Below the pieces are notes generated by a model. The model was not told the origin of the DNA and did no database searches. It saw only the letters and a list, made by a program, of their open reading frames with translations. Of a stretch of 64,000 bases of DNA, positions 57,975 to 59,652 are shown in pieces. How positions within the stretch are numbered: position 1 is the stretch's first letter; each line of letters opens with the position of its first letter. This DNA is from a virus (Duplodnaviria > Caudoviricetes): the IMG/VR virus record IMGVR_UViG_3300015610_000750, positions 1 to 64,000 of that record; one strand, written 5' to 3'. The position numbers were made by a program, and so were the translations under genes.

Positions 57975-58955
57975 ATGAGTATAATTTCCTATTTTGGTGG
58001 TAAGTCAAGTAATGTGTTTATGAATTTTATAAACACTCGAATACCAAAAGATGGTAGTATTAAAACCTATGTTGAACCATTTAGTGGAGCAATGGGTACA
58101 TTCATGGATGATGATTCATTGAAATTTGATACTGTCATTTATAATGATAAGAACAGACACCAAGTTAATCTATTTAAGTGTTGTTCAGAACCCGATAAGT
58201 TTATTCCCTATCTTGAAAATATAAAAAACGGTCTACTAAAGACATCTGAGACTGATCCACTTAAGAAGTGGGATTTCTATAAATCTATTTATAAAGATTA
58301 TACTAAAAATGATTTTTTAGATAATAATAATTTCCAAATTGGTGATTTTGAAAAGGCTGCAATTTATGCTTTCCTTATTACATCTTCACATAATTCTGTT
58401 TATCCGAGAGGGGCAGGATTTAATGGATATAAAAAGGATAGAGATAAGTTAAAGTTGGAAGTACTTATTAATAAACTTAAAAAGAACACCTATACACAAA
58501 AGCTAAAATCTATTACAGAGTTCTCAAATATTGATTTTGAGGAACTAATTAAAAAGTATGACTCTGAAGATACATTTATGTATCTTGATCCTCCTTATGC
58601 TAGATTTAATGAAGATAAGGGAGATGATGATGCGAAGCGTTTATTTTGGTATGGTGCTGACTCTGATGGAGTTTTTGGTCCATCTTCACATAGAAGATTA
58701 ATAGAATTATTGAAGAATACTAAGTGCAGATGGTCTCTATCATACTACTATTTCCCATTATTGGATGAATTACTTCCTCGTGGTGAATATTACTGGGAAC
58801 AGAAAGAAGTATTTAGAAGTTCTGCTCAAGGTGGTAATAATCACCAATTAAAGGGTAAACAAGAAAAGGGTGTCGAACTTTTGATAATGAACTACGATCC
58901 ATCTACTGGTAAGAAAACAAATTTAGCGCATGTGGATAGACGAGTTGAAATCTAG
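57975..58955 (+). CDS. DNA adenine methyltransferase (D12/Dam class)
   Basis: YFGGKS, YVEPFSG, YND, YLDPPY, ELLIMNY. Confidence 0.9.
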   Translation: MSIISYFGGKSSNVFMNFINTRIPKDGSIKTYVEPFSGAMGTFMDDDSLKFDTVIYNDKNRHQVNLFKCCSEPDKFIPYLENIKNGLLKTSETDPLKKWDFYKSIYKDYTKNDFLDNNNFQIGDFEKAAIYAFLITSSHNSVYPRGAGFNGYKKDRDKLKLEVLINKLKKNTYTQKLKSITEFSNIDFEELIKKYDSEDTFMYLDPPYARFNEDKGDDDAKRLFWYGADSDGVFGPSSHRRLIELLKNTKCRWSLSYYYFPLLDELLPRGEYYWEQKEVFRSSAQGGNNHQLKGKQEKGVELLIMNYDPSTGKKTNLAHVDRRVEI

Positions 58956-59652
58956 TGATTTAGTCAATGTAATGCCTTACATGACTTTGAATAAGAATCT
59001 TAATAACTTTATTAAGATTCAATTTAGTATGGCTTACCATGAACCGGATGAACTATTGAATAGAGATAAATTGATACATCTCGTTTCAAATGAGTTTAAT
59101 ATGGCAATATCGAATAAAATAATGAAAGAGTTTAATTCAGTAAATGTCTTTGATTATATCGATAAAAGTGGTATTGGTGATATTCAAGTTTTACCATTAA
59201 ATGATGTTATTAAAATAGCTGAGGAGTTTTACCATAAGACAGATTCTTATAAGTATCTAATCACCAATGGTAATTTGGGTAGCTTTCTACAAGATTCTTC
59301 AAGATTTACCATTACACCAGTCACTAATAGTATATCAAATTGGTCATCACTTACATATAATATTGGTAAGTTTGGAGATTTGGATGTTTGGATTGATCCA
59401 GTTCTTGAATGGAAAGATACAACAGGCTATCTTTTCGATGGAATCAACATTAACATTGGTGATTTCACAGCAACGATCAGTAATCAAGCAACATTTACAC
59501 CAAGATTGATATTTGACTTAGAGATTGATTTTAGGATTATTAATCCTAAATTATTTTTTGTAGTAACTGATAAGACATCAAAGTCATATTCAAGATACAA
59601 ATCTCTACTAAGAGATATTAAAATTAATGATGTTTTAGATGAAGAAAATTAG
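58930..59652 (+). CDS. truncated, divergent paralogue of the major capsid protein
   Basis: YLITNGNLGSFLQD, GKFGDLDVWIDP and NQATFTPRL align with MCP YLITNGGLAAALQD, GTIGDISIYVDP and SEATFAPRM. Confidence 0.75.
   Translation: MWIDELKSSDLVNVMPYMTLNKNLNNFIKIQFSMAYHEPDELLNRDKLIHLVSNEFNMAISNKIMKEFNSVNVFDYIDKSGIGDIQVLPLNDVIKIAEEFYHKTDSYKYLITNGNLGSFLQDSSRFTITPVTNSISNWSSLTYNIGKFGDLDVWIDPVLEWKDTTGYLFDGININIGDFTATISNQATFTPRLIFDLEIDFRIINPKLFFVVTDKTSKSYSRYKSLLRDIKINDVLDEEN

Follow-up and report, generated by a model that had tools for sequence, protein, structure and literature searches.

What does a phage do with a shortened copy of its own major capsid protein (MCP)? The question is raised by a 240-aa open reading frame (ORF), here called the mini-MCP, in IMG/VR virus record IMGVR_UViG_3300015610_000750 (Duplodnaviria; Caudoviricetes); the window, that is, the whole stretch analyzed, is the first 64 kb of this 103-kb contig, whose completeness is ~18% (CheckV). 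A first-pass annotation, made from the sequence of the window, had proposed a truncated MCP paralogue that does not assemble into heads. We find that the mini-MCP almost certainly belongs to a length-stable family of ~240-aa proteins from one Mahaphage-type subclade, which arose by duplication of a gp23-type MCP, kept the HK97 core, became acidic and gained a C-terminal tag. Since it lacks the lattice-locking elements, evolves fast beside a slow MCP, is patchily distributed, sits in an accessory and apparently non-late context and shares its tail with ORFans, it is, judging from sequence, probably an MCP-derived, soluble accessory protein rather than a subunit of the lattice.

The MCP of the window phage is 79–85% identical to those of LR745206 (635 kb) and LR756502 (642 kb), both complete genomes of uncultured phages, and 28% identical to those of Lak phages. 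Genomes of 634–735 kb are the largest within the Mahaphage clade, for which Bacteroidetes hosts are predicted (PMC7162821). Three relatives without a tagged mini-MCP (pT24, Lak-C1 and LR756504) were used for comparison.

Origin from the major capsid protein

ORF calling bore out the short gene and its overlap with the Dam gene: its ATG start falls within Dam, 26 nt from the 3' end, and it stops at TAG (coordinates of this and other features are in Table 1). Because TAG terminates 18 of ~120 long ORFs, and read-through here would gain just 10 residues, TAG was taken as a normal stop and an extended protein was ruled out. By BLASTP, residues 103–195 match MCP residues 435–535 (29% identity, E 3e–12), and a profile of 120 family sequences aligns over columns 47–202 to MCP residues 340–540 with an hhalign probability of 99.3% (E 4.9e–20); the four collinear blocks that the first-pass annotation had matched to the C-terminal half of the MCP all fall inside this alignment. 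MCP residues 1–339 have no sequence counterpart in the mini-MCP. The single sequence hit no Pfam family at E ≤ 0.1, Gp23 (PF07068) included; the only sequence relatives found were the phage MCP and the mini-MCP family itself, and a protein atlas returned only hypothetical viral clusters and capsid-fold matches.

Predicted fold

The AlphaFold2 (AF2) model, built with the family alignment as input, had a predicted local distance difference test score (pLDDT) of 92.3 and a predicted template modeling score (pTM) of 0.88. Its top matches from Foldseek (PDB and BFVD) and VIA were all HK97-fold capsid proteins or encapsulins, so that the absence of this fold, which the first-pass annotation had named as a refutation, was not observed; the VIA alignments began at residues 1–15 and covered almost full HK97-fold chains (range 1–215). 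Because the model is confident and the top matches are confined to the HK97 fold, we read the mini-MCP as a predicted complete minimal HK97 core, with spine helix, A domain and P-domain sheets, and not as a C-terminal half. The earlier claim that the N-terminal half is absent thus holds for the sequence but not for the structure. Ahead of the spine helix there are just 46 residues (339 in the MCP), and in the model the long N-arm, E-loop and insertion domain are lacking, with a stub hairpin at the position of the E-loop; by homology with T4 gp23/gp24, we infer that the ~290 missing N-terminal residues correspond to propeptide, N-arm, E-loop and insertion domain. Conservation in the family core peaks at residues 151–170, within the A/P-domain core, and the C-terminal helix is an addition outside the HK97 alignment range.

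The compact HK97 fold is common to the mini-MCP and the shells of encapsulins (260–300 aa), and we considered a mini-compartment of that kind with the co-tagged small proteins described below as cargo. We hold this to be very improbable: there is no sequence link to the encapsulin families in Pfam, the stub E-loop and N-arm would make a closed shell doubtful, and the presumed shell bears the same tag as its presumed cargo. The mini-MCP differs from encapsulins also in being phage-encoded and derived from the phage's own MCP, with the tag on the HK97 protein itself.

Family and rate of evolution

An exhaustive HMMER search recovered 207 cluster representatives of the family (105 at E ≤ 1e–10), almost all of 225–260 aa and with no fused forms among the best 150. 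A gene order of protease, MCP, NFACT-R protein, peptidase, acidic protein, NADAR, Dam, mini-MCP and small ORFs is conserved in eight genomes (LR745206, LR756502, five IMG/VR contigs and a close relative from Logan, L037/L038). Across the same genome pairs, identity is 27–34% for the mini-MCP, 70–85% for the MCP and 59–79% for Dam, making the mini-MCP the most divergent gene of the block. Relative to the Logan contig, its non-synonymous substitution rate (dN) is 0.039, 6x that of the MCP (0.006) and 30x that of Dam (0.0013), and its ratio to the synonymous rate (dN/dS) is 0.17. This pairing of low dN/dS with high dN indicates a functional gene under purifying selection, whose constraint is nonetheless loose or shifting.

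In its reduced length and strong divergence from the MCP, the mini-MCP recalls a functionless, decaying remnant of an MCP duplication, but the frame is intact, length is stable through the 207 representatives, dN/dS is 0.17, the fold is confidently predicted and the C-terminal motif is invariant. We regard a relic as effectively refuted, and rejected a decaying pseudogene on the length-stable representatives and dN/dS.

The distribution is patchy: at profile sensitivity no mini-MCP was found in pT24 or Lak-C1, which carry the same MCP type, and LR756504 gave a weak match only. A similar protein was found in a cultured phage, Chryseobacterium phage MA9V-2 (218 kb), where MA9V2_215, a 244-aa ORF annotated as a hypothetical protein, lies 3.3 kb downstream of a gp23-type MCP gene (L036:15825-16559). 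It is built from the same MCP portion, matching residues 325–527 of its own MCP (E 6e–22), and has no RDxKI tail. Its hhalign match to the Mahaphage mini-MCP family has an E of 1e–6 over 62 columns; its greater similarity to its own MCP than to that family makes an independent duplication probable.

The C-terminal tag

The first-pass annotation had pointed to RDxKI at the C-terminus. In the family alignment this is part of an amphipathic helix, RDxKIxxIL, which is the most conserved feature of the family: R228 is present in 120/120 members, I232 in 112/120 (93%) and K231 in 102/120 (85%), and positions 235/236 are aliphatic in 97–100%. The motif typically ends 1–4 residues short of the C-terminus. 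It is not peculiar to the mini-MCP. The contig holds seven instances of the strict motif where 0.18 are expected, four of them C-terminal where 0.009 are expected, and in both cases 0/1000 shuffles reached so high a count. Synonymous codon differences among the instances place the constraint on the protein, which ruled out a motif at the DNA level, for example an embedded promoter.

Counting by a strict back-translated DNA pattern, with the reversed pattern as control, gave 31 in LR745206 and 23 in LR756502 (controls 2 and 1), compared with 0 in pT24, 2 in Lak-C1 and 1 in LR756504. Carriers in LR745206 are 70–235 aa long, and 25 of 29 have the motif at a distance of 0–9 residues from the C-terminus. 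Most of the carriers examined are small ORFans with essentially no Pfam or PHROG annotation; some are further pieces of the mini-MCP itself. In this the tag resembles an address or docking signal, putatively specific to the subclade with the tagged mini-MCP. Tagged small ORFs are clustered near one genome end (LR745206 9–45545, minus strand; LR756502 606–637 kb, minus strand), where a tandem arrangement is frequent and suggests that these accessory genes form arrays.

Genomic context

The mini-MCP belongs to a seven-gene unit (Table 1), the NADAR gene of which was identified by Pfam. An ATATATA box lies ≤80 nt upstream of 50 of the 125 genes of the contig, including portal, protease, MCP and the two genes that follow MCP; it precedes none of the seven genes of the unit and one of 10 tagged genes. 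Because the unit lacks this box of the head genes, we see a weak suggestion, drawn from sequence, that it falls into a different temporal class from theirs.

T4 gp24, the head vertex protein, is a gp23 paralogue of 427 aa, and the first-pass annotation had judged the short ORF to be unlike it. A gp24-type vertex (penton) protein is indeed distinctly unlikely here. At 240 aa the mini-MCP is far smaller and lacks the long N-arm, E-loop, insertion domain and propeptide; its evolution, in identity (~30% where the MCP has 70–85%) as in dN, far outpaces that of the lattice into which it would have to fit; its presence in the clade is not universal, pT24 and Lak-C1 lacking it despite the shared MCP type; it has no head-gene (presumed late) promoter box; and its core is acidic, while its C-terminal tag is common to dozens of non-structural-looking ORFans. 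These indirect lines favor an accessory copy over a vertex protein.

Upstream of the unit is a 600-nt ORF-poor stretch (56176–56782) with a Bacteroidota-type promoter-like TATATTTG box at 56251 and a terminator-like hairpin and T-run near 56700; it had no Rfam match, and could be a leader or non-coding RNA. The protease and MCP genes share a near-identical box, TATAAAAAATCCACC, followed by GAAAAA, ~40 nt before ATATATA (49520–49560; 51670–51715). The gene directly after that for the MCP, 53531–54220 (+), has a product in which Pfam recognizes an NFACT-R RNA-binding domain (E 7e–15); such a domain is linked to ribosome quality control and is unusual beside a capsid gene. Also in the head module, 55619–56176 (+) encodes a very acidic, core-like protein of 185 aa, whose N-terminus, MKLKNYKELFEE, appears to resemble the T4 capsid-targeting sequence. 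Farther on, ~62.5–68.5 kb of the contig (window 62575–64000 onward) is a variable insertion relative to LR756502, with genes 63% and 37% identical to those of the close relative where neighboring genes reach 96–100%; it looks like a hyperplastic region.

Table 1. Features of the mini-MCP locus, its parent gene and other tagged or head-derived ORFs (window coordinates)
Feature	Position	Strand	Description and evidence
Mini-MCP gene	58930..59652	+	240-aa compact HK97-fold MCP paralogue with C-terminal tag; ORF, homology, AF2 model
N-arm/E-loop remnant, mini-MCP residues 1–46	58930..59067	+	Short N-terminal helix and beta-hairpin; model H2-8, E18-20, E28-35
P-domain spine helix, mini-MCP residues 43–69	59056..59136	+	~MCP 340–370; model H43-69, hhalign
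A-domain and P-domain core, mini-MCP residues 74–212	59149..59565	+	MCP-like motifs; hhalign to MCP ≤540, BLASTP
Added C-terminal amphipathic helix, mini-MCP residues 218–238	59581..59643	+	Model H218-238, outside HK97 alignment range
Tag motif R228–L236	59611..59637	+	Within C-terminal helix
gp23-type MCP gene, parent paralogue	51751..53448	+	565 aa; Pfam Gp23 E 1.6e–29
MCP segment homologous to mini-MCP, MCP residues 340–540	52768..53370	+	hhalign
Dam methyltransferase gene, D12 class	57975..58955	+	Pfam MethyltransfD12 E 4.6e–17
Seven-gene same-strand unit	56782..60266	+	106 aa, tagged 95 aa, NADAR, Dam, mini-MCP, tagged 85 aa, tagged 127 aa
95-aa ORF	57096..57383	+	C-terminal tag variant RDNIIEKLL; orthologue in LR756502 47% identical
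85-aa ORF	59639..59896	+	C-terminal tag RDYRIKKII; overlaps mini-MCP 3' end; orthologues tagged too
127-aa ORF	59883..60266	+	Near-C-terminal tag variant RDLNLVDVL; L018 orthologue ends in RDLNIDKLL
91-aa ORF	24454..24729	+	Internal tag RESKIDGIL at residue 31
52-aa ORF copying a prohead protease segment	42703..42861	+	19 residues (145–163), 11/19 identical, E 3e–7, BLASTP

Charge and a possible assembly role

In 99% of family members the core has a net negative charge (mean –7); the matching part of the MCP carries about +3 in seven of eight genomes. This family-wide complementarity, together with the A-domain core motifs that the two proteins share, would suit an assembly modulator, in which the acidic mini-MCP caps the capsomer-forming face of its own or a rival MCP and so chaperones, times or poisons assembly; the apparent lack, in the model, of the elements that propagate the lattice would suit it as well. 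There is precedent in Ccm, an MCP-homologous protein of a satellite of the phage-inducible chromosomal island (PICI) type that remodels capsids. We nevertheless consider this unlikely, since a partner of an MCP surface conserved at 80% should exceed ~30% identity, and the apparently non-late expression of the unit would be ill-suited to a chaperone of a late protein.

Other head-protein fragments

The mini-MCP is not the only piece of a head protein in the contig. The small ORF that copies a protease segment has KRLIS at its residues 37–41. Two further cases lie beyond the window. One is a second truncated MCP paralogue of 263 aa (contig 72011–72802, minus strand; L003:1411-2202), which matches MCP residues 417–513 (BLASTP E 7e–11), shows no detectable similarity to the first mini-MCP and has a conserved tag-like helix, REITLDAILD, near its N-terminus. 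It is 35% identical to its orthologue with a dN/dS of 0.26; thus, with low identity and dN/dS <1, it appears to evolve in the same way as the mini-MCP. Its AF2 model, from eight sequences, is poor (pLDDT 49). The other is a conserved ORF of 66–111 aa (contig ~69716–70051, plus strand; L039:217-549) with a Gp23 E-loop/spine-helix match (Pfam E 6e–10), no BLASTP match to the phage's own MCP and a C-terminal tag-like RTEKLSKIL; it lies directly 5' of a 408-aa ORF whose counterpart in the close relative shows 100% identity. A tagged 139-aa ORF (48627–49049, minus strand) was also examined as a protease fragment and was not confirmed (PHROG E 0.009 only, BLASTP not significant).

These fragments bear on another proposal, in which the mini-MCP is a minor component of the head or a protein of its interior. 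By binding coat or scaffold, the C-terminal helix would bring the mini-MCP and the tagged ORFans into the procapsid, where they would become internal or ejected proteins. C-terminal coat-binding helices are known in P22 gp8, 80alpha gp46 and SaPI1 CpmB, with a comparable tail on the HK97 protease; like the tag, these are short, basic, amphipathic C-terminal helices on unrelated proteins, which they would direct to a single partner. The putative coat-binding tag differs from them in having dozens of carriers per genome. In keeping with the proposal, the tag is an amphipathic helix at the extreme C-terminus, with an invariant Arg and a conserved Lys, on dozens of fast-evolving ORFans; the tagged ORFan set is similar to the sets of internal or ejected proteins of giant phages, such sets being known in T4, phiKZ and SPN3US; tagged ORFs include three of MCP origin and one of protease origin; the mini-MCP gene is 5.5 kb downstream of the MCP gene on the same strand; and its acidic core and the basic core of the MCP could bind each other. 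However, the head-gene ATATATA box is present before only one of the tagged genes, and the N-terminus of the acidic 55619–56176 protein may be a separate capsid-targeting signal. On balance we consider an internal protein unlikely.

A possible role in phage–host conflict

Having favored a soluble accessory protein, we turn to what its two conserved parts might do. The retained HK97 core would engage something that recognizes the MCP fold, and the tail would dock the mini-MCP to a hub common to the tagged set. Host sensors of the Avs7/8/10 and Dsr1 types wrap the HK97 fold, with contacts, for the Avs7 type, chiefly to the A domain (bioRxiv 10.64898/2026.01.04.697583). Of the MCP surface that such sensors see, the mini-MCP keeps the A-domain core motifs, but it has lost the E-loop and carries an inverted net charge. 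We tentatively place first a role in conflict with the host through the retained core, in which the mini-MCP would occupy or antagonize such fold-wrapping factors; this is possible rather than probable, and binding of the phage's own MCP follows close behind. A decoy function, as suggested in the first-pass annotation, is possible in these terms.

Several points tell against a conflict role, or against the accessory reading behind it. A faithful MCP mimic would be expected to activate capsid sensors rather than block them. With an acidic core opposite a basic MCP segment, the mini-MCP appears to be no electrostatic copy of the MCP, and fits an MCP binder at least equally. Its dN/dS, below 1, gives no gene-wide arms-race signature. 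The promoter-class argument depends on the presumption that ATATATA is a late box. A search of seven related genomes, at the sensitivity of Pfam Gp23, turned up no second full-length Gp23-type (gp24-like) gene, which formally leaves the vertex position vacant. Finally, a literature search found neither a precedent for an MCP decoy nor any description of a mini-MCP family.

The second MCP paralogue and the other fragments allow a broader, though unlikely, extension, a 'bait-and-tag' system: a library of small proteins, several of them copies or pieces of head proteins, united by one C-terminal address helix. The baits would catch host receptors for conserved phage folds; the tag would bring the bait–receptor complexes to a common hub or fix them there. 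Material for such a library is present as three MCP-derived ORFs and a protease-derived peptide in the contig, with more MCP pieces in relatives.

Significance

The mini-MCP is unlike known MCP paralogues such as the vertex protein T4 gp24: it is a predicted minimal HK97 core, acidic and fast-evolving, with an address-like tail, and that tail marks a lineage-specific set of dozens of uncharacterized proteins in the largest known phage genomes. The apparently independent mini-MCP of a cultured Chryseobacterium phage opens the question to experiment. Should either defense evasion or assembly control prove true, this would be the first case of a phage reusing its own capsid fold as a soluble effector, and the tag would give a handle on the function of a large share of megaphage dark matter.

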